Source: a virus (Duplodnaviria > Caudoviricetes). From it: a DNA stretch of 57,978 nt. How positions within the stretch are numbered: position 1 is the first letter of the stretch; every line of letters begins with the position of its first letter. The notes under the pieces were generated by a model that did not search any database, was not told where the DNA came from, and saw nothing but the letters and a program-made list of their open reading frames with translations. Below, in pieces: positions 32,274 to 57,978 of this stretch. The position numbers and the translations under genes are program-made. Location of the stretch: positions 1-57,978 of the IMG/VR virus record IMGVR_UViG_3300005253_000632. One strand, written 5' to 3'.

Positions 32274-32497
32274 ACGGGTTCCCAGTGCAAGTACTCCGGA
32301 ACATGGGTCTGCGGTGTGTCGCAATGCGATACTATTGGTGGTTCAAGCATTTCCTTGAAGTTGGCCCGCTGGAAAATGCCGCGTATTTCCTATTGCTGCT
32401 CCGGAATCGAGATAAGCAATTGCCGGAGCCGTGGCAGCATTTGCGTCGCCAGTACGCACGCAAACGAATCACTGTTGCCAAAGGAGAAACGCAATGA
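32270..32497 (+). CDS. Hypothetical protein
   Basis: GGAGG RBS, ATGA coupling. Confidence 0.55.
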   Translation: MNGFPVQVLRNMGLRCVAMRYYWWFKHFLEVGPLENAAYFLLLLRNRDKQLPEPWQHLRRQYARKRITVAKGETQ

Positions 32498-35385: not shown

Positions 35386-35580
35386 ATGAGCGACACTAAA
35401 CCGTGCCCTGAATGCAACGGGAAGATGATTCAATGGCCCACGGGCGTCGTGTTGTGCTGTTATCCTCCCAAAACGCCGTGGATATGGAAGTGCGGTTGCG
35501 GCCATACCGAAAAGGGTGGCAAGTGGGTAGGCCAAACGGACGAACAGAGCTTTCAGGACGAATGGAAGGCAAGGCAATGA
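35386..35580 (+). CDS. Zn-ribbon-like protein, paralogue of 57378..57584
   Basis: CPEC..KMIQW...W.W.CGCGH.EKGG. Confidence 0.7.
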   Translation: MSDTKPCPECNGKMIQWPTGVVLCCYPPKTPWIWKCGCGHTEKGGKWVGQTDEQSFQDEWKARQ

Positions 35581-42885: not shown

Positions 42886-43241
42886 CCCGCAGATTTGTCT
42901 ACGCATGGACTGGCCCGTGGCCGCAATGGATGCGGATCATTCGCGCCCCATGGTTCTTCGTTCAGCAAACGCTCTACTGGCACCGGCACGGCGGGCGGTG
43001 GCTAGCGTCGGCCGCGCTGGCGTGGGCAATGGTTGTTGCACAGTGCGACGACTCGGACATTCGGCAAGATAAGAGGCGAAACGCGTGACCCGCCTGGAGA
43101 CGACAGCCGGAGGCCGCCGAGTTGTGATCCTGAGCCAATGTCCGCGAAATGAAAGGAACGCCTATGGCCAAGTGATCCTTCGGGCTGCCGGTTCCCACAA
43201 CATTTTGACCCGGCAGCCCCATTTTCACGATATAATACAGC

Positions 43242-43460
43242 ATGGCCCGCAATAAGTTCAGCCTGCCTGAACTCCTAGATTACCTCGTTTCGTACATCCA
43301 CGCCCACGGATCGCCCACGGGCATGAAGCAGGCCGCCGCAGCCCATTTTGACTGTGATCGCCGGACGATAACTCGAGCGCTGGATGAGCTTCGCCGCCAG
43401 AAGCGGCTCGGCCGCGACGCATACCGCAAATGGCGCAACTCCACCGACGCTGCAGATTGA
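43242..43460 (+). CDS. HTH protein (possibly leaderless)
   Basis: AAAHFDCDRRTITRALDEL; TATAAT 5 nt before ATG. Confidence 0.6.
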   Translation: MARNKFSLPELLDYLVSYIHAHGSPTGMKQAAAAHFDCDRRTITRALDELRRQKRLGRDAYRKWRNSTDAAD

Positions 43461-43509
43461 TGTCCCATTTCAGGCCCCCAGCACCCCCTTATAAGGTAGG
43501 GAGCGTGCT

Positions 43510-43794
43510 TTGGCCACATCCGACGAGCTACCACAATTAGATGAAGCAACGCGGAGGGCCATTGCTCGGCTGCCCCGCGATCTCCGCGAGGACGGCCGGC
43601 AGGAGGCATATTTAGCGATCCTTGATGGCCGCAGCCCTTCGGCAGCGGTGCGCGAGTTTCGCCGCCGAGAGCAATTCCGCCAAGACCGCGAAGAGGTTGG
43701 GCTGCCCCGGGACCCGGCGTCCGACAACTCGCTTCCACCATCACCATCGAATCGCCGCGTGTCAGATTGGAGATCGGATGCGCGGTCTTGTTAG
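43510..43794 (+). CDS. Sigma-factor region-2-like fragment / hypothetical
   Basis: REDGRQEAYLAIL; AGGTAGGGAG RBS. Confidence 0.4.
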   Translation: MATSDELPQLDEATRRAIARLPRDLREDGRQEAYLAILDGRSPSAAVREFRRREQFRQDREEVGLPRDPASDNSLPPSPSNRRVSDWRSDARSC

Positions 43795-43921
43795 CGGCGA
43801 TCATCCCGCTGCGCGGCCTAGAGATCCATCCAACCGCGTGGCTTTGCCGCGGTCAATTCGCGGATCGCCGGTTGCGGCGGGGTGCAATGCCTCGTCGCCC
43901 CGGCGGGGCCTTACGATATTT

Positions 43922-44077
43922 CGTGCCGATCGGCGGCGTGGCGGGTAGCGGGAATAGGCCGGTACCAGGCCGAATACCGACGGATGCCACGGCAGGGACG
44001 CCTGAAATGGGAACGGTAGTTGGGTTCGACTCCCACACCATTCGTGCCGGTGATGCAAACCCGGCCCGATTTGTACG
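43922..44077 (+). ncRNA. Putative structured RNA element E3 containing a canonical T-arm
   Basis: ATCGGCGGCGTGGC ... CCCGGCCCGAT closure; TGGG-TTCGACT-CCCA at 44021-44035. Confidence 0.55.
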
Positions 44078-44096
44078 GATTGACGCCGGCGGGGCC

Positions 44097-44240
44097 TTAA
44101 TCCTCTGCCATGTCTAACTTTTGTGGTGGCTTCGGGCTTGGCGGTGTTGGCTCGTCATCGTCTGCGTCCACGGGCGGGGCGGGCTTGAATCCGAAGCCCT
44201 TGAGTGGCTCTTCCACGATGTTGATTTTGCCAAGGTCCAT
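44097..44240 (-). CDS. 47 aa Pro/Asp-rich protein, last gene of array 1 (not in ORF track)
   Basis: ATG 6 nt after TACAAT; MDLGKINIVEEP... Confidence 0.55.
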   Translation of the reverse strand: MDLGKINIVEEPLKGFGFKPAPPVDADDDEPTPPSPKPPQKLDMAED

Positions 44241-44282
44241 CGTGACATTGTATCACAGTGTCGCTTATTCATCAAAGCGACA

Positions 44283-45179
44283 TCATGGATGCGCAGCTAC
44301 GATTCGTCTCCCGATCCATTCGGCGACTTGCGGGACGACGGCGTTGGCGAGCCCTCTAAGTCGGTCCACCCTTCGGGGAACCCCATGAGCCACTCGATCC
44401 ACGTCGGGTTCAGTTGACCACCAAGGGTCTCTGATAATCCCATTGCTCCCCGTCGCGGCGAAACATTTCCGCCCTTGATCGCGTCGGTGCTGGTTGGAGT
44501 CGGGAACCTCGCTACCGCAGTCGCCAGATCGTCGCTGCCCGTGCCCGGACGGCTGGCCCTGGCAAAGTCCGGTCCGCTGGGGCTGCTCTTGGGAATGGGC
44601 CATCGTTTGGGAATAATCCCCGCCTCGCGAAATTTTCGTATGGTATCGTGATTCGTTGTTTGTTCGTTGTAGACTTCGCCCATTGACGCTGTTGCGGTGG
44701 GCAAGAATGAAAACCCGATATCGGATATGCGGGGCACCAACGGCTGCTGCCGGAATACAATCCCATTCCGCATCGTACCCGCCATCGGCCAAGTTTCCGA
44801 GAACTCGATCCATCCCCCGAACAAGCAAAGCTGCGACGTTTTCCACGAGCACGTATCGGGGTCGTAGCTCGCAAATGATTCTGTAGAACTCAGACCACAA
44901 CCCGCTTCGCTGGCCTTCGATTCCTGCCCGCTTGCCGGCGCTGCTGATGTCTTGACAGGGGAAGCCCCCACAAATGAGATCAACGGATTCCAGATTGCGG
45001 ATACCGACTGTTCTAACATCTTCGTATCGCTCCACGGTTGGCCAGTGTTTCGCTAGGACCTGACAGCAGTAATCATCAATTTCGACCTGCCATCGACACG
45101 CCATGCCGGCTCGCTCAAGGCCAAGATCGAGCCCGCCGATGCCAGCGAATAGGCTACCAAATGTGATGGGCTGTGGCAT
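44283..45179 (-). CDS. dcm: C5 cytosine DNA methyltransferase, main (alpha) polypeptide
   Basis: SLFAGIGG, GGFPCQ, ENV, HIRYRVF, RLRGLANAV. Confidence 0.92.
   Translation of the reverse strand: MPQPITFGSLFAGIGGLDLGLERAGMACRWQVEIDDYCCQVLAKHWPTVERYEDVRTVGIRNLESVDLICGGFPCQDISSAGKRAGIEGQRSGLWSEFYRIICELRPRYVLVENVAALLVRGMDRVLGNLADGGYDAEWDCIPAAAVGAPHIRYRVFILAHRNSVNGRSLQRTNNESRYHTKISRGGDYSQTMAHSQEQPQRTGLCQGQPSGHGQRRSGDCGSEVPDSNQHRRDQGRKCFAATGSNGIIRDPWWSTEPDVDRVAHGVPRRVDRLRGLANAVVPQVAEWIGRRIVAAHP
44297..45019 (-). CDS. Overlapping-frame (beta) polypeptide of the C5 methyltransferase
   Basis: 240 codon open frame inside dcm; PTP repeats and LNP.W.EWLMGFP.GWT (motif IX-like). Confidence 0.7.
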   Translation of the reverse strand: MLEQSVSAIWNPLISFVGASPVKTSAAPASGQESKASEAGCGLSSTESFASYDPDTCSWKTSQLCLFGGWIEFSETWPMAGTMRNGIVFRQQPLVPRISDIGFSFLPTATASMGEVYNEQTTNHDTIRKFREAGIIPKRWPIPKSSPSGPDFARASRPGTGSDDLATAVARFPTPTSTDAIKGGNVSPRRGAMGLSETLGGQLNPTWIEWLMGFPEGWTDLEGSPTPSSRKSPNGSGDES

Positions 45180-45220
45180 GGTGACCATTGTACCAAGAAT
45201 GTCGCTTTTCATCCAAAGCG

Positions 45221-45520
45221 CTACTCTAACGAGATACGCTCTTCGTGCTTGAATATGTGCCCGAAGCGGCAGACAGAACAATGGCACGTATAGTGTGCCG
45301 TGAACAGTCCTGCCCGGCTCAGAAAAAACTCATAGTCTTCGCGCAGGCTTTCCTCTTGGTTGTCGGCCGTTGGTTCTGCGCCTAGGGCTTTTCGCTTTTC
45401 GTCGAACTCTGCGACAGGAATCTTCCCATAGGTATCGGCAACCTCCCGTTTGGCGGCTTCATGTTTGGCCTGAGCCGCCAGAAGGCATTTGGGGCATACT
45501 GACCAATTGTCGGCGGACAT
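45221..45520 (-). CDS. Cassette-like gene, Zn-binding
   Basis: MSADNW..CPKC ... SLREDYE ... CSVC; TAG inside the palindrome. Confidence 0.8.
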   Translation of the reverse strand: MSADNWSVCPKCLLAAQAKHEAAKREVADTYGKIPVAEFDEKRKALGAEPTADNQEESLREDYEFFLSRAGLFTAHYTCHCSVCRFGHIFKHEERISLE

Positions 45521-45547
45521 TCGATCTTCCTTTCAATGGTGTCGCTT

Positions 45548-45946
45548 TCAGCCAAAGCGCTGCTGCTTATCGGCCCATGCTTTGTGTGTCCGCGTGTAGG
45601 CGAGTCGGCGGGCCTTTCGCTGTGAACTCGCATTACCATAGAACACCGCACGCCCGTCTTGCTGAACCACATACGCCACCCATTCGCCGCGCTTGATATG
45701 GATCAAGATTGGAGCGCTGCACCACCCGTGGCCATGACGCCGACCATCGTACGGCCCGCCAACAAAGACGTACTTCTCCCGCTGGCCTCGCGCGGACAGC
45801 TCTTTCGATACTTCGGCCTTGTGGTCAGCAATCCATGATGAAACTAGGCCGGGCTTAATAGACTCCGGCTGCTGCATGATTAGTTCGCCGTCCCAATCCA
45901 GTCCGAGCTTGAAGCCGAGAGCTTCGAGGACGTCAATAACGAACAT
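45548..45946 (-). CDS. Cassette-like gene
   Basis: AAGGAG RBS; FVGGPYDG; stop in the palindrome loop. Confidence 0.75.
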   Translation of the reverse strand: MFVIDVLEALGFKLGLDWDGELIMQQPESIKPGLVSSWIADHKAEVSKELSARGQREKYVFVGGPYDGRRHGHGWCSAPILIHIKRGEWVAYVVQQDGRAVFYGNASSQRKARRLAYTRTHKAWADKQQRFG

Positions 45947-45980
45947 CGTTTCTCCTTAGAGTGTCGCTTTGTGCAAAGCG

Positions 45981-46253
45981 CTACTCTGCTCCAGCGGGCG
46001 GCTTCTCTTCGGCCTTGGCTCTCGCCAGTGCCATATCGTGCTCAAACAGGTCCTCTTCGTTCATCTCGTACAGTGACGGCTTACAGTCCACGCCCCACGT
46101 TCGATCACAGATGCGACAGAACGACTCCGTTCCTTCGTCTACGCTGTCTCTGAGTATCCACACGCTCCGGTGGTTCAGTTCGCAGTGACGCACACGGCTG
46201 CGCTCCGCCGCGATACGCCGTTCTTGTGCATCCGGCTTTGTGGTTTTTGGCAT
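45981..46253 (-). CDS. Cassette-like gene
   Basis: AAAGGAG RBS; CRIC; TAG inside the palindrome. Confidence 0.75.
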   Translation of the reverse strand: MPKTTKPDAQERRIAAERSRVRHCELNHRSVWILRDSVDEGTESFCRICDRTWGVDCKPSLYEMNEEDLFEHDMALARAKAEEKPPAGAE

Positions 46254-46291
46254 TGAGTCTCCTTTCGGAGTGTCGCTTTCATCCAAAAGCG

Positions 46292-46486
46292 CTATTCGGG
46301 TTTGTTGGCCTCGTCGATGTAGGCCCTGACCCCGGCTTTAGTGCGGGAGCTTATGGATGGCCGGCACACCAAGCGGAATTGCCATTGCAAGAAGCGTCTG
46401 TGGCCATCCCGAATCACGATTGGTGTTATCAGGTTGCCCCGGTATTCCCACGATTTGCGATTGTCGCATTGCTGTGCGTTGCTCAT
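46292..46486 (-). CDS. Cassette-like gene, paralogue of 39080..39322
   Basis: AGGAGG RBS; TAG inside the palindrome. Confidence 0.75.
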   Translation of the reverse strand: MSNAQQCDNRKSWEYRGNLITPIVIRDGHRRFLQWQFRLVCRPSISSRTKAGVRAYIDEANKPE

Positions 46487-46675
46487 TGCAGGGCCTCCTA
46501 TTCTGCCCAATCCTACCACAGGGTGTCGCTTTTGCAAGAAAGCGACATTCAAAACGACGGGCTGCAGGCTTTTACTGCGGCACGCCGCAAGGCGCAAAGG
46601 CAGGACACCCGTTCGTGTCCATCGCCGCTTGCATCCAGCAGATTGTCTATAGCCGCTCCGCTGGCATCCAATGAC

Positions 46676-46703
46676 ACTATACCACATTCGCAACGAGCGA
46701 CAA
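46676..46703 (-). promoter_or_regulatory. Promoter TTGTCG-16-TATAGT with TGTGG, facing array 1
   Basis: Same geometry as other phage promoters in this window. Confidence 0.55.
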
Positions 46704-47449
46704 GCAATAATAGTGTGATGGCAACTGCCATTGTGGCAGACAAGAACGAAACACGCTCCGAGCGGAGCTTCGGCGAATAGCCGGCCCTCTGCGTTGACGA
46801 GCGAATAGGGCGATTGGCGCAAACCTCAGGCGCGACGTACACCCGCCCGGCCGGTGCATCGGCGAAATGATGGGGTTCGCATATTGAGCCCCGGGGGTGA
46901 CTTGGCCGGGAGAGACCGGCCTCCATTTGATATGCAGCTAAATACGGACACAACTGCATGCGACCCTGGATCAGCAAGAGCGTTCTTGCACAGGCCAGAC
47001 GCGCAGGAACTGCTGACTCGACATTCCGCCAAATGCTGCTCGCACGGGGCCATCAGCACAACCTACGCTCCCTGTAATTGCGGGGCCTAAGAGAGGGCAC
47101 GGGCGCTGCTTGCCATTTTGACATGAGCCACACCAACGGATGCGAATGCCTAACTTGCAGATTGCAGGCGTTTCTCATGCGCCCGGGAATCAGACGAATG
47201 CTCACCGAACACAGTCTATTGTGTTGCTCCTATGAGGAAGCCCCAGCGGCTGAGCACTCATCGGCCCGATTGTGCGATTGCGGCGCATCCCAACGGGCCG
47301 CAGACCTAGAAGCCCTGTTCGTATGATGTTCCAACTCCTGCTCAAACCAGTGCCCGCCGGCCGCGACGGCGACGGCCGCGATCCCATTTACCGCTTGCGC
47401 GGGGCGCTCAAGGTGGCGTTGCGACGGTTCGGTTTGCGGTGCATAAGCT

Positions 47450-48013
47450 GTGAAACACTCGAAATTTCCGCCCCAGGTCTACACGAAAGACGAGCTCAAT
47501 CGCATTCTGATGGCCTGCGGCGGTCACCCAAACGGGCTGCGAAATCGGGCGATCATAATGATGGGCTACCGCTGTGGGTTGCGATGCGCAGAGGCGCTGG
47601 CGCTCCACCGATCGGACATCGCTCTGGACCAAGGCCACGTGCTGATTCAGAGGGGCAAGGGCGGGAAGTCGCGGCGAATCGGGCTGCCGGATGACGCTGC
47701 GGCTGCCGTTCGTTCCACGTGGAACGCGGAGCCCATGCGGGGCGAGTGGGCGTTCCCCACCTCGAGCGCAGGAAAGCTGTGTACCTCATACGTTCGAACC
47801 CTGTTGCCGCGGCTGGCCCGGCGGGCGAACATCGCTAAGCGCCTGCACTTCCACGGCTTACGCCACACCTTCGCCTGGGAGCTGTCACAAGAGGGGGTGC
47901 CGATGCCGATCATTCAACGGGCCTTGGGCCACAGCAGCTTGAACACCACGGCGGTCTATTTAGACCATCTGGCCCCCCATGATGTGATCAACGCGACGCG
48001 GAACCGCGCATAA
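47450..48013 (+). CDS. Tyrosine recombinase, catalytic domain only (187 aa)
   Basis: GLR, GKGGK, HGLRH, LGHS, TAVY: complete R-K-H-R-H-Y set. Confidence 0.92.
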   Translation: MKHSKFPPQVYTKDELNRILMACGGHPNGLRNRAIIMMGYRCGLRCAEALALHRSDIALDQGHVLIQRGKGGKSRRIGLPDDAAAAVRSTWNAEPMRGEWAFPTSSAGKLCTSYVRTLLPRLARRANIAKRLHFHGLRHTFAWELSQEGVPMPIIQRALGHSSLNTTAVYLDHLAPHDVINATRNRA

Positions 48014-48170
48014 AACGACCGCCGACACATCCGTGTCCCGGCGGCCGGGTCCATGATCAACCGCGAGCATACATCCCTATGCCATCCTGTCAAGCAACAA
48101 ATGCTGCAACAAAATACCGAATTTGTTGCAAGGTCGCAGGTCAAACCAAGCAGAAACCAGCGAGAAACCA

Positions 48171-48386
48171 ATGGCCGAGCTTCCCGCCAGCCACTCCAAG
48201 GCGCTGAACAAGGGCCGCACCAAGAAGCTCCAGCGCCGCCTCACGTCGATCGACGCACAGCTCCGCACCCGCCGGGCAGCGATCAGCGAACAGCAGACGA
48301 TCATCCATGGCCTGCTCAAGACGCGGGAACGCCTGGACAAGCAACTGTACGAGGTGGCCAAGCGAGGTGGCCAAGCGAAAGGATGA
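48171..48386 (+). CDS. Coiled-coil hypothetical protein
   Basis: Heptad pattern. Confidence 0.55.
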   Translation: MAELPASHSKALNKGRTKKLQRRLTSIDAQLRTRRAAISEQQTIIHGLLKTRERLDKQLYEVAKRGGQAKG

Positions 48387-48680: not shown

Positions 48681-48896
48681 TTGACTGAAAGGATGAAAAT
48701 GGCACACGTGCGCGTTGAATTCAAGTTCCCCCTCCTCAGCCAAGTGAAGATCAAGGCTACGGGCGCCGTGGGCAAGGTGATTGGCCTTTTCATTGATCGG
48801 GACTCGATCACCTTCGCACTCGTCGAGTGGTTCGACAAGACCGCGCAACAGCATCGGACATACTTCCGCGAAGAGGACCTCGAATCCGTTGGCTGA
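48681..48896 (+). CDS. Small SH3-like beta protein, paralogue 2
   Basis: Same motif as 48383..48595. Confidence 0.65.
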   Translation: MTERMKMAHVRVEFKFPLLSQVKIKATGAVGKVIGLFIDRDSITFALVEWFDKTAQQHRTYFREEDLESVG

Positions 48897-49230
48897 CCCC
48901 ACCGCCAATCTCGGCGAACTCGCGATCACGGGCGGCCCCGGGCGTCCGAAGGGCTCCAAGAACAAGGCCACGCGATACCGCGCCTTGATCGACGAGGCCA
49001 TGAGCCAGGATGACGAGCGGGCGATCTGGCAGGCCCTGATTGGGTTGGCCAAGGGCTGTTCCGAAGTGCCCGCCGACGTGATTGCGGCCCGCCTCATTAT
49101 GGAGTATCGTTACGGCAAGCCGCGACAGGTCATCGAGGCCGACGTGAATATCGGCCTGCAAGAGCTTGTGTTTACGGTCGTTCCGATGTCTAATGAGAGC
49201 GAGACGAACGATGGCGATCCTGACCCATGA
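48889..49230 (+). CDS. DUF5681 / terminase-small-subunit-like protein
   Basis: GPGRPKGSKNK, L...A..G, AARL..EY..GKP.Q. Confidence 0.6.
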   Translation: MADPTANLGELAITGGPGRPKGSKNKATRYRALIDEAMSQDDERAIWQALIGLAKGCSEVPADVIAARLIMEYRYGKPRQVIEADVNIGLQELVFTVVPMSNESETNDGDPDP

Positions 49231-51677: not shown

Positions 51678-52673
51678 ATGTCCACCCCACTGAGTCTACA
51701 GCATATTCTCGTGACCGGCGGCAGCGGATTTCTAGGCACGGCTGTGCTGCAAAAGCTCGATGCCGCAGGGTGTCGCCATGTGTGGTCGCCGAGTAGCGGC
51801 ACGCTGAACCTGCTTGATGAGGACCTCTGTAGGAAGTGTGTTGTTGAGTTCGCGCCCGATACCATAATCCACTGCGCGGCGATATGCGGCGGCATTGGAG
51901 CCAACCAAGGCACAGAGGCCGAGTTTTGTCAGGGCAACCTGCGAATGGGGCTGAACGTGCTGCATGGTGCCCATGTGGCTCATGCCCGGCTCATCAACAT
52001 CGGCTCCGTATGCGCCTATCCCCTTGATTGCCCACAGCCCATGCGCGAAGACGACCTGTGGGCAGGCTGGCCCGAGCCTACGAATGCCTATTACGGCATT
52101 GCCAAGCGCACTATCATGGCGGCGGCCGACGCCTACAACAAACAGTACGGCCTCGAGCGCTTGAATCTGGTGCTTACGAACCTCTACGGGCCGGGCGACA
52201 ACTTCGACCTGAAGACCTCCCACGTTATCCCGGCCCTGATGCGCAGGATGGCAGAATGCGGGCCGTGCGATACGGTTGACTTGTGGGGCGACGGCACGCC
52301 GACCCGCGATTTGTTGTATGTCCAGGATGCCGCCGAAGCCATCGTTGTGGCTGCCGTCTCGCCAAGCGCGGGCGGCACGATCAACATTGCGTCAGGGCAG
52401 AGCCATAGCATTGCCAAGCTCGCTCGCATGGTCGCTGATGTTGTTGGGTTTCACGGTCAAGTAGAATGGGACAGGGCAAAGCCGAACGGTCAGCCAGCGC
52501 GGCTATTGGATATTTCGCGTGGCGCACGCTCGCTCGGCTGGAAAGCAACGACTAGCATCCAAGACGGCCTTCGGCGAACGTATGAATGGTACAAGGCGTC
52601 AACCGAGCTCTGTGGCATGAGGCTTTGTGGTACACCAGTAGAAGAGGGCGGCAAACAGCGCCATGGCCGTTAA
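51678..52673 (+). CDS. fcl: GDP-L-fucose synthase
   Basis: TGGSGFLG, AA.CGGIGAN, GS.CAYP, EPTN..YGIAK, NLYGPGDNFD..TSHVIPAL, WGDGTPTR, KPNGQP. Confidence 0.93.
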   Translation: MSTPLSLQHILVTGGSGFLGTAVLQKLDAAGCRHVWSPSSGTLNLLDEDLCRKCVVEFAPDTIIHCAAICGGIGANQGTEAEFCQGNLRMGLNVLHGAHVAHARLINIGSVCAYPLDCPQPMREDDLWAGWPEPTNAYYGIAKRTIMAAADAYNKQYGLERLNLVLTNLYGPGDNFDLKTSHVIPALMRRMAECGPCDTVDLWGDGTPTRDLLYVQDAAEAIVVAAVSPSAGGTINIASGQSHSIAKLARMVADVVGFHGQVEWDRAKPNGQPARLLDISRGARSLGWKATTSIQDGLRRTYEWYKASTELCGMRLCGTPVEEGGKQRHGR

Positions 52674-54651: not shown

Positions 54652-54894
54652 ATGACCACCGCAAGCCTCGATAGCAGCACAATCCTGGAATGCCGCAAGC
54701 AGTTTTGCAACTACTGCCGAGAGGGCCACGCCCTTATCCCCGGTACATACCGGCATCGGTTCAGAGCGAGAGTCTTCGGCATTCCGCAAACGGTTGAGCC
54801 TGGGTGCCATGCATGGCAGTTGGTGAAGCTGGAACATCCCAAGAGTCGACGTGACCCGCCGCCGAACTTTCAAACCGTCATTGGGCACGCATGA
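54652..54894 (+). CDS. Small Cys protein bracketed by 11 bp direct repeat
   Basis: CNYC; ATGA-coupled to gmd. Confidence 0.55.
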
Positions 54895-55871
54895 CCACCG
54901 CCCTCATCACAGGCATCACCGGCCAGGACGGCTCATATCTTGCCGAGCTGTTGCTCGGCAAAGGCTACACGGTCCACGGCATCATCCGCCGCAGTAGCTC
55001 GATTAACACCGAACGAATTGACCACCTGTACGAAGAGCCGCATTCCGAGAGCCGAAACCTCTACCTGCACTATGGTGACCTGGCCGACGCTGCAAATATC
55101 GCCCGGCTCGTGGCCGAAATCCGGCCCGATGAAGTGTACAACCTAGGCGCGCAGTCACACGTCCGCGTCTCGTTTGACATCCCCGAATATACCGCCGACG
55201 TAATAGCATTGGGCACCCTACGGCTGCTCGAAGCTGTCAAGACGCACGCTCCAGCGGCACGGTTCTATCAGGCATCAAGCAGCGAGCTATTCGGTGCATC
55301 ACCCCCGCCGCAGAATGAACAAACGCCGTTCCACCCGCGAAGTCCGTATGCGATTGCCAAGCTGCACGCGTACTGGACAACGATCAACTACCGCGAAGCA
55401 TATGGGATGCACTGCTCGAACGGCATCCTGTTTAACCATGAATCGCCCCGGCGTGGCGAGACGTTCGTCACACAGAAGATCGCCAAGGCCGCAGTACGCA
55501 TATCCCGCGGCCTACAGCAACATGTCTATCTCGGCAACCTTGACGCGCAACGAGATTGGGGCTATGCTGGCGATTACGTTGAAGCCATGTGGCTCATGTG
55601 CCAGCAGGACGAGCCAGACGATTACGTGATCGCCACGGGCGAGATGCACAGCGTACGAGAGTTTGCCGAGCGAGCCTTCGGCTGTGTTGGCCTGGATTGG
55701 CGAAAGCATGTGCGGATAGATGAGCGATACATGCGGCCCGCCGAAGTCGATGCGCTGTGTGGCGACGCCAGCAAGGCGCGCGAGCGGCTGGGCTGGAAGC
55801 CCCACGTTGCTTTTGACGAACTGGTCAAGATGATGGTGGGCGCAGGAAGCAGATGGGATGGTGCGACATGA
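54891..55871 (+). CDS. gmd: GDP-mannose 4,6-dehydratase
   Basis: [66 protein letters not shown]. Confidence 0.97.
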
Positions 55872-56788: not shown

Positions 56789-57123
56789 CAATGTCGCTTT
56801 TACCTAAAAGCGCTACTCCATGCGGCACGTAATGAACGCCCCCTTGACAGCGCCCTTGGCAATTTCAGGCAGCGGGCTTTCGTCGCCCATCAATATCCAA
56901 TAGGATTCCTGCATGGATGCAATCTCGGCCCGCAGCTTGGCCTTGTCGGCTTGTAGCCCACAGATCGTACAAGTACAGCAGCCACTAGGATTGCAGGTGT
57001 TGCAAGTAGATAACTTCATTGGCTTAATGTGATGGGTACAGACGGTGCAGCCGGGCTCATCTGTCGCTGGCTCGCTCATGTCATCATCCTACCACAGAGT
57101 GTCGCCTTTGCAAGGCGCTACTC
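56789..57123. repeat. Array 2 of palindromic gene-boundary sites (56789-56818, 57097-57123)
   Basis: Same consensus as array 1; second site has compensatory CCTT/AAGG. Confidence 0.9.
56813..57079 (-). CDS. Cassette-like Cys-rich gene
   Basis: TAG inside the palindrome; N-half shared with 38823..39083. Confidence 0.75.
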   Translation of the reverse strand: MSEPATDEPGCTVCTHHIKPMKLSTCNTCNPSGCCTCTICGLQADKAKLRAEIASMQESYWILMGDESPLPEIAKGAVKGAFITCRME

Positions 57124-57381
57124 CGGTTTGGCCTTGGCGAGGGCGGCGTGCGTCTTGTTGTGCCAATCCCCAAACAGGAATTCTAGTTCATCGCTGCCCT
57201 CGACAGCCCCAACAGTTCCGGCCTCCTGATGTTTCTTGAGTGCATTTGAATACCGCCCGCCCGCCTCGCACGCCGCGAGCAGGTCTTTGAATGCGTCGCA
57301 ACGAGGACACAGGTTTTCGTCCAACGAAACGCCCTCTGGCACCACAAAGTCTATGTTGCACTGGTAGCACGCGATCTTCAT
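57118..57381 (-). CDS. Cassette-like gene with DLLAACE module
   Basis: AGGAGG RBS; TAG inside the palindrome. Confidence 0.75.
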   Translation of the reverse strand: MKIACYQCNIDFVVPEGVSLDENLCPRCDAFKDLLAACEAGGRYSNALKKHQEAGTVGAVEGSDELEFLFGDWHNKTHAALAKAKPE

Positions 57382-57584
57382 TGCGTGGCCTCCTGTTGTT
57401 GTTCCCATTCAGCCTGAAAGCGCTGCTCTTCTGTCTGTCCTGTTCTAGCCCCGCCCTTTTCGCTGTGGCCGCATCCGCACCGCCAGTTCCAGGGATATTT
57501 CGCTGGCTCGGTAAGGATGACGGCGCCGGTATCCCACTGGATCATCTTTGCTGAGCATTTGGGGCATTGCTTGTTGTCGGGCAT
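57378..57584 (-). CDS. Zn-ribbon-like protein, paralogue of 35386..35580
   Basis: AGGAG RBS; CPKC..KMIQW. Confidence 0.75.
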   Translation of the reverse strand: MPDNKQCPKCSAKMIQWDTGAVILTEPAKYPWNWRCGCGHSEKGGARTGQTEEQRFQAEWEQQQEATQ

Positions 57585-57615: not shown

Positions 57616-57643
57616 ATCATACCACATGTCCAAGAAATGGCAA
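57616..57643 (-). promoter_or_regulatory. Promoter TTGCCA-16-TATGAT with TGTGG, facing array 2
   Basis: Same geometry as the 30248 and 46676 promoters. Confidence 0.6.
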
Positions 57644-57978
57644 ACCCGCGACGGACAGATCACGCTGTACTGCGGGGATTGTCTCGACATCCTGCCCACG
57701 CTGGAGGATGGCTCGGCAGACTTCATCTTCACAGACCCGCCCTACGGGCACAACAACAACAACGGAGACCTGATCGCCAACCGGGAGGCAGCGCTCGGGC
57801 GGGGCAAGCCCGGCAAGCCGCGTCCGATCTCCAACGATGGCCACGAGGCTGCGAGCAAGCTGTTCAAGTTTCTTGTCCATGAATCTGATCGCCTGTTGAA
57901 CCGTGGAGGCTGCTGCTGCTGCTGCTGCGGCGGCGGCGGCGGCCCAGACCCGCAATTTGCACGCTGGGCTTTGTGGAT
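57626..57978 (+). CDS. N6-adenine/N4-cytosine DNA methyltransferase (3' truncated, not in ORF track)
   Basis: LYCGDCLDILP.L...S.D.IFTDPPYG. Confidence 0.9.
   Translation, partial: MSKKWQTRDGQITLYCGDCLDILPTLEDGSADFIFTDPPYGHNNNNGDLIANREAALGRGKPGKPRPISNDGHEAASKLFKFLVHESDRLLNRGGCCCCCCGGGGGPDPQFARWALW

Follow-up and report, generated by a model that had tools for sequence, protein, structure and literature searches.

Junction palindromes in two gene arrays of a marine-sediment phage and their likely link to a minimal Xer-like recombinase

Marine sediment yielded the 57,978-bp viral contig analysed here (hereafter the window, meaning the whole stretch of DNA). It carries exactly eight palindromic sites, with none elsewhere in a consensus scan. 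All eight lie at gene junctions, and all have a single orientation. Comparison with relatives indicates that the sites are most likely tied to a tyrosine recombinase encoded on the same contig, as the enzyme's own dif/lox-type sites, multiplied here. The gene arrays that they divide may constitute a gene-cassette platform of a new type.

Results

Eight palindromic sites at the junctions of two arrays

A preliminary description of this DNA had reported six palindromic sites. All six lie where it put them, each between two co-oriented minus-strand ORFs, and the observation proved larger than reported: two further sites (56791-56816 and 57099-57121), the variation in spacer length and a 10-bp arm core were absent from that description. 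Its 12-bp arms hold only if an internal 2-bp mismatch is allowed; the conserved core is 10 bp, and coordinates are given here in the 10-N-10 register. The consensus, GTGTCGCTTT-N6-AAAGCG(CT/AC)AC, is a 26-base palindrome. Spacers measure 6, 6, 5, 4, 6, 6, 6 and 3 bp in sites 1-8, so that five of the eight have the 6-bp form. The sites are as follows.

44258..44283, minus strand: site 1, symmetric; GTGTCGCTTA-TTCATC-AAAGCGACAT (plus strand), 10-6-10; between the Dcm gene and the 47-aa gene
45199..45224, minus strand: site 2, asymmetric; ATGTCGCTTT-TCATCC-AAAGCGCTAC, 10-6-10; TAG stop for the 99-aa gene
45539..45563, minus strand: site 3; GTGTCGCTTT-CAGCC-AAAGCGCTGC, spacer 5; the 132-aa ORF crosses the arm and stops within the spacer
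45961..45984, minus strand: site 4; GTGTCGCTTT-GTGC-AAAGCGCTAC, spacer 4; TAG stop for the 90-aa gene
46270..46295, minus strand: site 5; GTGTCGCTTT-CATCCA-AAAGCGCTAT, 10-6-10; TAG stop for the 64-aa gene
46523..46548, minus strand: site 6, symmetric; GTGTCGCTTT-TGCAAG-AAAGCGACAT, 10-6-10; first site of array 1, closest to the recombinase
56791..56816, minus strand: site 7 (new); ATGTCGCTTT-TACCTA-AAAGCGCTAC, 10-6-10
57099..57121, minus strand: site 8 (new); GTGTCGCCTT-TGC-AAGGCGCTAC, spacer 3; TAG stop for the 87-aa gene
57397..57424, minus strand: partial look-alike within the 68-aa gene (left arm and spacer, near those of site 3)

As described earlier, the four inner sites of the first array share the TGTCGC / GCGCT(A/G) asymmetry and the two outer ones are symmetric, while three inner sites supply the stop as GAR TAG (ORF ends 45221, 45981 and 46292). 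The pattern GTCGCTTN{3,10}AAGCG gave nine matches against 0.07 expected, a number reached in 0 of 100 shuffles, and the consensus scan of both strands returned 18 rows, compared with 0-5 (mean 0.9) in 30 Markov shuffles. The look-alike at 57397..57424 need not be a decayed site, because its coding stretch is conserved in a paralog of the 68-aa ORF, the plus-strand ORF 35386-35580 (59% identity).

The cargo of the two arrays consists of a Dcm methylase and eight ORFans. Array 2, a second minus-strand array with sites 7 and 8, lies 10 kb from array 1, and no recombinase stands beside it within the window. Site 7 forms its end, giving the TAG stop of the 88-aa gene and facing a convergent HNH gene.

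44097..44240, minus strand: 47-aa ORF, last gene of array 1; no family match
44283..45188, minus strand: C-5 cytosine DNA methyltransferase (Dcm) cassette; PF00145, E 2.4e-48
45221..45520, minus strand: 99-aa ORF, CxxC-rich; no family match
45548..45946, minus strand: 132-aa ORF; no significant family match
45981..46253, minus strand: 90-aa ORF; no family match
46292..46486, minus strand: 64-aa ORF, first gene of array 1; no family match
56813..57079, minus strand: 88-aa ORF of array 2; no family match
57118..57381, minus strand: 87-aa ORF of array 2; no family match
57378..57584, minus strand: 68-aa ORF of array 2, zinc-ribbon-like

A recombinase reduced to its catalytic domain

The tyrosine recombinase that had been placed on the opposite strand is indeed there.

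47450..48013, plus strand: 187-aa tyrosine recombinase, Xer-like, catalytic domain only; PF00589, E 1.9e-38

The enzyme covers positions 3-169 of the 172 in PF00589. Columns R31/R33, K70/K73, H135, R138, H161 and Y170 are conserved in 10 close homologs, and we take them to be the catalytic R, K, HxxR, H and Y; on this alignment the catalytic domain is intact. The closest solved structures are XerA, XerD and XerH; the alignment to XerA is confined to residues 99-263, and that to XerD to residues 111-281. A core-binding (CB) domain N-terminal to the catalytic domain is absent, and the ORF begins directly past an in-frame TAA. The 120 homologs listed, of 222 at E <= 0.001, measure 151-271 aa and have PF00589 alone in every case. 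We know of no member of this catalytic-domain-only family that has been assayed for activity. Simple tyrosine recombinases are described as usually comprising CB and catalytic (CAT) domains (PMC8138268).

Named families fitted the enzyme poorly. Both IntI models remained below their cut-offs (TIGR02249, 80 bits vs 265; NF011946, 55.7 vs 435) and matched in two separate stretches. All Xer models were likewise below cut-off: the best was NF040815 (XerA) with 113 bits vs 220, followed by XerC (104 vs 335), XerD (98 vs 330) and XerS (43 vs 267). A Fim-type tyrosine DNA invertase, of about 200 aa, was considered and rejected, with NF007371 at 52 bits vs a cut-off of 222; an inverted repeat pair bracketing the promoter at 46676, also looked for, was not found.

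The site accompanies the recombinase in relatives

The link between sites and recombinase supposed in the preliminary description is borne out by the co-occurrence of motif and gene in relatives. Scanning from -170 to -10 relative to the recombinase gene, we found a 10-6-10 palindrome at 18 of 22 distinct loci with at least 39% identity, compared with 47 of 402 control windows; below 39% identity, the count was 10 of 59 loci. The relatives' palindrome is a single copy, 40-150 bp upstream of the gene. Its arm sequence varies by subgroup (GTGTGGCTAT, GTAGTGCTAC, GTGTCACTAA, GTTACGCTTT), and the end-to-end length was 26 bp in every palindrome re-registered by eye, a constancy that is, as we read it, protein-dimer geometry. 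Five Planctomycetota genomes have one cognate pattern per recombinase copy; in one of them, G028, all five sites lie within about 75 bp of a copy.

A scan of GTDB genomes with a 19-base motif gave 25 single matches. The match on contig G001:C27, from a Phycisphaerales MAG, precedes a minimal recombinase of 47-49% identity by about 120 bp, and its arms, GTGTCGCTTT and AAAGCGCTAC, are those of site 4, 2-bp asymmetry included. The rest of this 58-kb contig has no other match to the ORFs of the window: the recombinase (47-49%) and an almost identical site are all that our phage has in common with an unrelated Planctomycetota prophage.

Xer-type single recombinases and large plasmids are described as keeping their site beside the gene (PMC5357621). 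Against the own-site reading, the recombinase gene here has no site at the usual upstream position, the nearest being about 900 bp off. No relative bears a site array, among 119 loci scanned and five genomes.

Expression signals at the sites and alternative readings

The promoter previously described as facing the array was recovered as a minus-strand, TG-extended sigma-70-like match at 46703..46676. It reads into array 1, yet four sites have -10 boxes of their own.

46676..46703, minus strand: sigma-70-like promoter match into array 1; TTGTCG-16-TATAGT with TG; no palindrome
57616..57643, minus strand: sigma-70-like promoter match at the head of array 2; TTGCCA-16-TATGAT with TG; no palindrome
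46510..46518, minus strand: extended -10 TGGTAGGAT, 6 nt past site 6; read from sequence
45187..45195, minus strand: extended -10 TGGTACAAT, past site 2 and 7 nt ahead of a Dcm-gene ATG, read from sequence; as placed, this is a leaderless-type geometry
44247..44255, minus strand: extended -10 TGATACAAT, past site 1 and 6 nt ahead of the 47-aa gene ATG
57086..57094, minus strand: extended -10 TGGTAGGAT, past site 8 and 6 nt ahead of the 88-aa gene ATG; read from sequence

The operator or hairpin alternative named in the earlier work stays live, since four of eight sites are just upstream of an extended -10 and all eight can fold. The main rival reading, possible though rather unlikely in our judgement, takes the sites as regulatory modules like the promoter-early stem-loops (PeSLs) of T4-type phages. 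Each would join a stem-loop, acting as terminator or attenuator, to an early promoter or a ribosome-binding site, thereby insulating and driving its small accessory gene; shuffling would proceed by ordinary homologous recombination between repeats, and the recombinase link would reflect a shared portable regulatory element, e.g. the gene's own operator. Such modules would account for the TGnTAnnAT extended -10 boxes 6-8 nt past four of eight sites, for spacers that start TTG at -35 distance in seven of eight, and for the Shine-Dalgarno sequences directly past the remaining sites. The promoter scanner calls one site-linked promoter, and two more of the same type head the arrays. Promoter parts also repeat along with the sites (6 like 8, 1 like 2), site 8 and its downstream promoter box resembling site 6. 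Every site folds, at -6.8 to -17.9 kcal/mol on one or the other strand, the three with short spacers included. PeSLs themselves are described as composites found where ORFans meet, made up of a stop codon, promoter, stem-loop, Shine-Dalgarno and start codon, that mediate modular shuffling and mini-circles (PMC2839356; PMC4122927).

However, the stems are short and have no U tract, and folds beat all 200 shuffles at only two of eight sites on the sense (minus) strand and three of eight on the plus strand (z-scores of -5.4 to +0.25). The -35-like TTG is not kept in relatives' sites, and a length fixed at 26 bp across phyla, with one-to-one recombinase pairing, is unexpected of a terminator or promoter hairpin. 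Against the own-site reading, arms that are intact at off-length spacers, together with the folding of every site, fit a hairpin constraint better than the decay of dead sites.

Operators or roadblocks acting as stoperators do, with the recombinase or another phage protein binding the junctions to silence or time the arrays without recombination, appear improbable to us. The palindromes do span the -35 and spacer region of four promoters, and their single orientation relative to transcription is as described for mycobacteriophage stoperators (PMC9283540). In relatives, the site sits between a -10-like ATAGAGT and the recombinase start, and the G028 copies and L175 have an additional half-site about 50 nt upstream, a layout that fits autoregulation. 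Spacing that varies from 3 to 6 bp would, however, interfere with the binding of a dimer at three of the sites, promoters are absent at half of the sites, and the 20 neighbouring ORFs scanned include no repressor candidate or family.

It is very unlikely that the palindromes act at the RNA level, as intercistronic hairpins of a polycistronic transcript serving processing, stability or translational coupling. Their span from the stop codon to just ahead of the Shine-Dalgarno is the typical position of such elements, and sense-strand G-U pairs are retained at sites 2 and 7. Folding is about equal on both strands, though, and the right arm keeps its 10-nt sequence even at sites where the outer bases are unable to pair. 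Rfam gave no matches, and RNA hairpins leave unexplained why unrelated elements have this site upstream of their recombinase genes.

Spacers and the evidence on cassette exchange

All spacers differ across the eight sites. As no two are identical, the sites of this genome are not expected to undergo canonical strand exchange with one another, and spacers of 5, 4 and 3 bp (three of eight sites) are incompatible with the family's fixed 26-bp geometry. Contigs, in which rare variants are invisible, showed no breaks or joints at the sites in runs X1-X3, of which X1 and X2 are possible sources of the window DNA and X3 comes from the sample of X2; this counts only weakly against exchange.

In run X4, from another study, one contig carries a site with the spacer of site 5, 13 nt upstream of the 87-aa gene's homolog. 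Another contig, equal in depth (29.4), matches the window along 43110-44284 and diverges right at the edge of site 1. This suggests a relative with different cassette neighbours. Against site exchange, its shared sequence starts 4 nt ahead of the ATG, not within the spacer. The cassette capture or shuffling proposed earlier thus finds no contig break in X1-X3 and has its sole hint in the X4 relative; capture or exchange at the sites is plausible. Taken as a whole, the interpretation given in the preliminary description is partly supported.

Discussion

As a tentative explanation, to which we give somewhat less than even weight, the eight palindromes are dif/lox-type duplex core sites recognised by the phage's own catalytic-domain-only Xer-like recombinase. 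Each would comprise a pair of inverted 10-bp arms separated by a 6-bp centre. The usual arrangement in the enzyme family is a single-recombinase module, in which one site closely precedes the gene; this phage instead has the site multiplied to every junction of two accessory arrays and lacks one at the recombinase gene. Recombinase dimers would bind the sites, and recombination there would insert, remove or swap single-gene units. Because the five 6-bp spacers all differ, sites of the same genome should not recombine together; a site would instead pair with a same-spacer counterpart on a co-infecting relative or circle, giving cassette exchange and not deletion. Sites with 5-, 4- and 3-bp spacers would be dead or locked. 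The site would also bring expression signals, with a stop codon in the left arm, a spacer resembling a -35 box and, past the right arm, an extended -10 or Shine-Dalgarno, so that an inserted gene would be expressed.

The further step, a natural cassette-exchange platform in which mutually incompatible 6-bp spacers block intramolecular deletion and allow precise same-spacer swaps, is unlikely on present evidence. If true, single anti-defence or accessory genes could be swapped precisely with a co-infecting relative or a circular cassette, and an integron-like function would have arisen from an unrelated, far simpler enzyme and site.

Cre/loxP sites have inverted arms and a short asymmetric spacer whose identity decides pairing, and a gene placed between sites of unlike spacer can be exchanged without being deleted. 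The inverted arms around a short asymmetric spacer recur here, whereas recombinase-mediated cassette exchange with heterospecific spacers is a laboratory design, Cre has 343 aa and two domains, and loxP is 13-8-13. We know of no natural multi-site array. In the R64 shufflon, Rci and multiple inverted sfx sites flip the 3' ends of one gene. There too, several tyrosine-recombinase sites bound short segments near the recombinase gene; the present sites are all direct and bound whole genes.

Integrons carry attC boxes in the order R''/L''-L'/R', with the consensus RYYYAAC ... GTTRRRY. The arrays resemble them in having a tyrosine recombinase beside small genes that share one direction and mostly lack promoters, a putative promoter that reads into the array from the end nearest the recombinase, and an imperfect palindrome per junction, in one orientation, with stop codons within the site. 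The layout described earlier (recombinase, array-facing promoter, one site per junction, one orientation) thus resembles an integron platform. Integron identity was rejected, on the sub-cut-off IntI scores and the lack of attC boxes: the eight aligned sites contain neither GTT nor AAC core boxes, and the earlier statement that R boxes are missing was correct. Unlike IntI, the enzyme has no extra domain and lacks the whole N-terminal domain; the sites, at 23-26 bp and without R or L boxes, have stems too short for two monomers on a folded single strand. Classical integron parts reported in phages are a different matter (PMC9892861).

Mycobacteriophage stoperators are likewise many copies of one short intergenic site in one orientation to transcription (PMC9283540). 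Stoperators are 13 bp long, asymmetric and bound by a monomeric repressor, in contrast to the recombinase-linked palindromes of this phage. Single-recombinase Xer modules (XerS/difSL, XerH/difH, XerA/dif) and plasmid resolution systems share the Xer-like catalytic domain and, in our phage's relatives, the palindromic arm-6 bp-arm unit adjoining the gene (PMC5357621). The phage departs from them in its missing core-binding domain (187 aa vs about 290-360) and in its eight junction sites, five of them in 10-6-10 form, while the recombinase gene itself has none. PeSLs of T4-type phages are comparable in being composite motifs that recur between ORFans of plastic regions and are linked to modular shuffling (PMC2839356; PMC4122927). 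They occur in low-G+C myoviruses, lack a recombinase of their own and presumably recombine by homology, whereas the repeat here is of the site type that goes with a recombinase family.

Eight palindromic sites in two arrays

The six palindromes of the preliminary description were all found exactly where it had placed them. A search with the pattern GTCGCTTN{3,10}AAGCG returned nine matches, two symmetric sites being counted on both strands, against 0.07 expected, and none of 100 shuffled sequences reached nine. The same search supplied a seventh site at 56791; an eighth at 57099, its arms altered to CGCCTT/AAGGCG, was found by reading onward. A consensus scan allowing up to four mismatches and spacers of 2–9 bp recovered those eight sites and none elsewhere in the window, with 18 rows over both strands compared with 0–5 (mean 0.9) in 30 shuffles.

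Palindromic sites (by start position) and recombinase gene
44258, site 1, array 1, spacer 6 bp
45199, site 2, array 1, spacer 6 bp
45539, site 3, array 1, spacer 5 bp
45961, site 4, array 1, spacer 4 bp
46270, site 5, array 1, spacer 6 bp
46523, site 6, array 1, spacer 6 bp
56791, site 7, array 2, spacer 6 bp
57099, site 8, array 2, spacer 3 bp
47450–48013 (+), tyrosine recombinase

Put into one register, the sites take the form GTGTCGCTTT-spacer-AAAGCG(CT/AC)AC. The arms are unbroken irrespective of spacer length, and the five 6-bp spacers are all different (TTCATC, TCATCC, CATCCA, TGCAAG, TACCTA). All eight sites share one orientation and lie at junctions of minus-strand ORFs or at an array end; five of them (2, 4, 5, 7 and 8) provide the GAR-TAG stop of the upstream gene. 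The altered arms of site 8 were considered as a compensatory change proving base-pairing, an argument rejected as weak because site 8 resembles site 6 minus 3 bp beside the palindromic spacer TTGCAA, whose own symmetry is enough to preserve that of the site.

The array genes are one C-5 cytosine methyltransferase and eight small ORFs without a family match, several of them CxxC-rich. Array 2 (56.8–57.6 kb) lies 10 kb away from the recombinase gene and adjoins an HNH gene and a divergent N-methylase gene. Scans of the whole window for tRNAs and Rfam families gave no match, and no attP-like tRNA fragment was found. Array 1 is separated from the recombinase gene by ~900 bp (46550–47450) that hold the promoter match at 46676 and no convincing ORF, tRNA or Rfam match; a small RNA or an attP could lie there. 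Two exact copies of a 14-nt direct repeat, CCGGCGGGGCCTTA, lie 186 bp apart at the convergent end of array 1 (43900–43913 and 44086–44099).

Two further resemblances were noted. The 68-aa zinc-ribbon-like gene of array 2 (57378–57584, minus strand) has a paralog at 35386–35580 (plus strand; 59% identity over 64 aa), which belongs to a plus-strand replication/recombination block. A stretch at 57397–57424, close to the left arm and spacer of site 3, was considered as a decayed site and downgraded: it is coding sequence, conserved in the paralog, and lies within an EQxFQxEW motif common to both. Separately, an identical 11-mer, ATGAGCGACAC (Met-Ser-Asp-Thr), opens four plus-strand genes (at 32494, 33592, 35386 and 35577) and is absent from the other strand. 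Its last eight bases are identical to the right arm conserved among the sites (AGCGACAC), which may reflect a half-site, a translation signal or chance.

A catalytic-domain-only recombinase in a phage without close kin in the collections searched

The window, an entire IMG/VR virus record of 57,978 bp, is linear, with an estimated completeness of 84%, and is present, whole or in part, in four public metagenome runs on marine sediment that belong to two studies. Its plus strand codes for a large terminase (truncated where the contig begins), portal, major head protein and tape measure, followed by a RecE-like exonuclease and many ORFans. A capsid search of IMG/VR returned 31 loci at no more than 54% identity, mostly 31–38%, and identity to cultured phages reached 25% at most; the phage is therefore without close sequenced kin in the collections searched. 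It also carries two sugar-nucleotide enzymes on the plus strand (51678–52673 and 54891–55871) that match PHROG 540, nucleotide-sugar epimerase, the second also matching GDP-mannose 4,6-dehydratase (PF16363, E 1.4e-142); both are possibly host-surface modification genes. The contig terminates within the N-methylase gene in a run of CTG/GGC triplets (57900–57978), a repeat that may account for the assembly stop.

The ORF at 47450–48013 encodes a tyrosine recombinase (PF00589, E 1.9e-38) of only 187 aa, which aligns with the catalytic domains of XerA, XerD and XerH and with nothing N-terminal of them. A search of 5.8 billion proteins gave 222 homologs at E ≤ 0.001; the 120 of these that were listed are 151–271 aa long with PF00589 as sole domain. 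Close homologs share the start KFPPQVYTKDE, and the catalytic-type columns are invariant; the protein is not a fragment. Every curated Xer, IntI and Fim-invertase model scored below its cut-off (XerA 113 of 220, IntI 80 of 265). The enzyme thus belongs to a distinct catalytic-domain-only, Xer-like family and is not an integron integrase.

As a query, the recombinase alone found one relative in IMG/VR, at 30% identity, and an alignment of close recombinases found eight loci there at up to 34%. Closer homologs are 69–85% identical (P0002–P0011), one of them on a 59.6-kb contig. Searched against metagenomes, the alignment returned 80 loci, only one of them close: a 1,252-bp fragment (L167) with a recombinase end 98% identical to the window's, which stops short of the array. 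By tblastn this fragment also matches the window ORFs at 48123–48386 and 48781–49230 at 90–92% and nothing between them, which suggests that the two differ by ~0.4 kb downstream of the recombinase, without involvement of a site.

The recombinase family carries a site of the same build

We scanned GTDB (one genome per species, 185,579 species) with a 19-base version of the motif. The scan gave 25 single matches, close to the ~35 estimated from random base composition, and 24 of them had no recombinase nearby; one, in Planctomycetales (L261), lay in coding sequence and was set aside as chance. The 25th comes from a Phycisphaerales MAG (G001:C27, a contig of 58,239 bp), where a minimal recombinase 47–49% identical to that of the phage lies ~120 bp downstream of it. 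This match has the arms of site 4, GTGTCGCTTT and AAAGCGCTAC, 2-bp asymmetry included, around a 6-bp spacer. The TAG/TGT asymmetry therefore belongs to the site itself and does not arise solely from the stop codons. This contig carries a prophage with its own serine integrase, primase, ParB-methylase and small terminase, and has no ORF in common with the window apart from the recombinase. In IMG/VR, all 80 loci listed from a loose motif scan held single matches, which was uninformative, and a stricter 18-base scan gave four single matches, none with a recombinase beside it.

Metagenome loci at 40–47% identity have a single palindrome 60–90 bp before each recombinase gene, differing in sequence and alike in build (GTGTCACTAA-N6-TTAGTGACAC, GTAGTGCTAC-N6-ATAGCACTAC and GTGTGGCTAT-N6-AAAGCCACAC, for example). 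Homologs were also found in 8 of 401 sampled Planctomycetota genomes, with six copies in one genome; in the copies GTTACGCTTT-N6-AAAGCGTAAC precedes the start codon by ~40 nt, and an additional half-site often lies ~50 nt further up. When a palindrome with two 10-bp arms and a 6-bp spacer (10-6-10) was counted uniformly, with up to two mismatches, between −170 and −10 of the gene, it was present in 18 of the 22 distinct loci whose identity is ≥39%, in 10 of 59 below 39%, and in 47 of 402 control windows from the same loci. The co-occurrence of motif and recombinase, which the preliminary description had proposed as a check, is thus borne out among the nearer relatives. Each family palindrome that was re-registered by eye measures 26 bp end to end.

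Five Planctomycetota genomes have one cognate pattern per recombinase copy, not arrayed, and in one of them (G028) each of five sites lies within ~75 bp of a recombinase copy. The constant spacing, subgroup-dependent arms and one-to-one adjacency are hallmarks of a recombinase core site. Single-recombinase Xer systems, and large plasmids as well, are known to have the site adjacent to the gene (PMC5357621). The family site could also double as an operator of the recombinase gene; TnpI with its IRS is a precedent for a recombination site serving also as operator. Dimer resolution and autoregulation are candidate roles for the one-site module in its usual setting.

Two features of these modules are recorded as observations. 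Many (L175, 3333–3350 and 3385–3412; L289–L301) have a direct copy of the left arm, preceded by ATAGAGT, ~50 nt upstream of the palindrome, which may act as an accessory site for binding or as a second promoter. The G028 genome has six recombinase-plus-site modules (L303–L307, e.g. L303 3300–7540) in repeated segments of ~4 kb that also code for a DnaN-like sliding clamp, a weak ArdC-like protein and DUF6573; from copy to copy these segments are rearranged, and every copy's site has a different 6-bp spacer.

Expression signals at the sites

Aligned in gene sense, sites 1, 2, 6 and 8 are followed after 6–8 nt by an extended −10 box (TGnTACAAT or TGGTAGGAT), and at three of the four an ATG follows in leaderless geometry. 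From the −10 box through to the ATG, sites 1 and 2 are near-identical.

Stretches of leaderless-type geometry at array genes, ATG 6–7 nt after the extended −10
44238–44255 (−), array gene
45177–45195 (−), array gene
57077–57094 (−), array gene

The remaining sites are followed by a Shine-Dalgarno sequence, except site 7, where a convergent gene comes next. In seven of the eight, the spacer starts with TTG at −35 distance. A promoter scanner called one of the site-linked promoters, and also two palindrome-free promoters heading the arrays, at 57643..57616 and at 46703..46676; the latter coincides with the proposed promoter at 46676 facing array 1. A Fim-like invertible switch was rejected, this promoter having no flanking inverted repeats.

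This anatomy fits the published description of promoter-early stem-loops (PeSLs) of T4-type phages, and regulatory modules of that kind are the main rival reading, which we consider unlikely on balance. PeSLs lie at ORFan junctions, join a stop codon and promoter boxes to a stem-loop, a Shine-Dalgarno sequence and a start codon, and are described as mediating modular shuffling (PMC2839356; PMC4122927). Each of the eight sites can form a fold on either strand (−6.8 to −17.9 kcal/mol); two sense-strand and three plus-strand folds are better than those of all 200 shuffles. That the sites act as RNA hairpins is very improbable in our view. A role as operators or roadblocks is improbable, less so than the hairpins, and a small share of the probability is given to none of these readings.

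What sets this phage apart

The family's site is present eight times in this phage, and the usual spot upstream of the recombinase gene has none. Relative to each site, the cassette genes stand where the standard module has that gene: site, short leader, ATG. No array was found in 119 related loci, counting any repeated hairpin, or in the five genomes, and the array ORFs matched nothing in 183 other loci.

Direct evidence of shuffling is thin. In three runs (two possible sources of the window and a second run of one sample), contigs run through all sites with neither breaks nor joints, which is weak evidence because contigs drop rare variants. The run from the other study (X4) contains a mosaic relative that is 94% identical to the window across 1,110 bases of the recombinase region; cover is missing for 45.4–46.6 kb of the window and was not counted as absence. 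One X4 contig joins 57385 to ~22 bases matching site 5, with 13 other letters between, so that a homolog of the 87-aa gene is preceded by an intact site bearing site 5's spacer. At that place the window has the overlapping 68-aa gene and no site. The junction does not display a crossover within the spacer, because the shared sequence starts 4 nt before the ATG. A second X4 contig of identical depth (29.4) tracks 43110–44284 and then diverges from the window at site 1's outer edge; the equal depth suggests that both pieces belong to one contig, which would place array-2 genes beside site 1 in that relative.

A putative cassette platform and its relation to known systems

The sites are probably bound by the phage's own recombinase. 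That they are cognate recombination sites forming a cassette platform is a more tentative proposal, to which we give somewhat less than even weight. If the recombinase is bound at multiple sites, recombination would be its natural function, through cassette insertion, loss or exchange, and would account for a site at each junction. This reading is weakened because the 6-bp spacers all differ and three spacers are 5, 4 or 3 bp, the arms being intact regardless; intact arms and variable spacing fit a hairpin or half-site role in expression equally well. Differing spacers would prevent recombination among sites of one genome. A same-spacer partner on another genome would still be permitted, and natural exchange of cassettes between genomes through such sites is the boldest reading.

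If the recombinase acts on the sites, they would constitute a second, independent phage route to a gene-cassette platform, consisting of a 187-aa enzyme and a 26-bp site and far simpler than IntI with attC. It would explain the precise swapping of small accessory and anti-defence genes between phages and would offer a compact recombinase/site toolset with naturally orthogonal spacers. If the sites are only regulatory, mobile regulatory cassettes of the PeSL type would extend beyond T4-type myoviruses, to a siphovirus of high G+C content. The array aside, a widespread module emerges, a catalytic-domain-only Xer-like recombinase with a single upstream 10-6-10 palindrome, which ranges over prophages and other elements of Planctomycetota and soil metagenomes. 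In a limited literature search, we found neither such a recombinase with an upstream palindrome nor such phage arrays described.

The system resembles integrons in layout and Cre/lox and Xer/dif in site design, and is a member of none of them. With PeSLs it shares the anatomy of the sites and the kind of genes involved; it differs from them in that a dedicated recombinase family stands behind the repeat.
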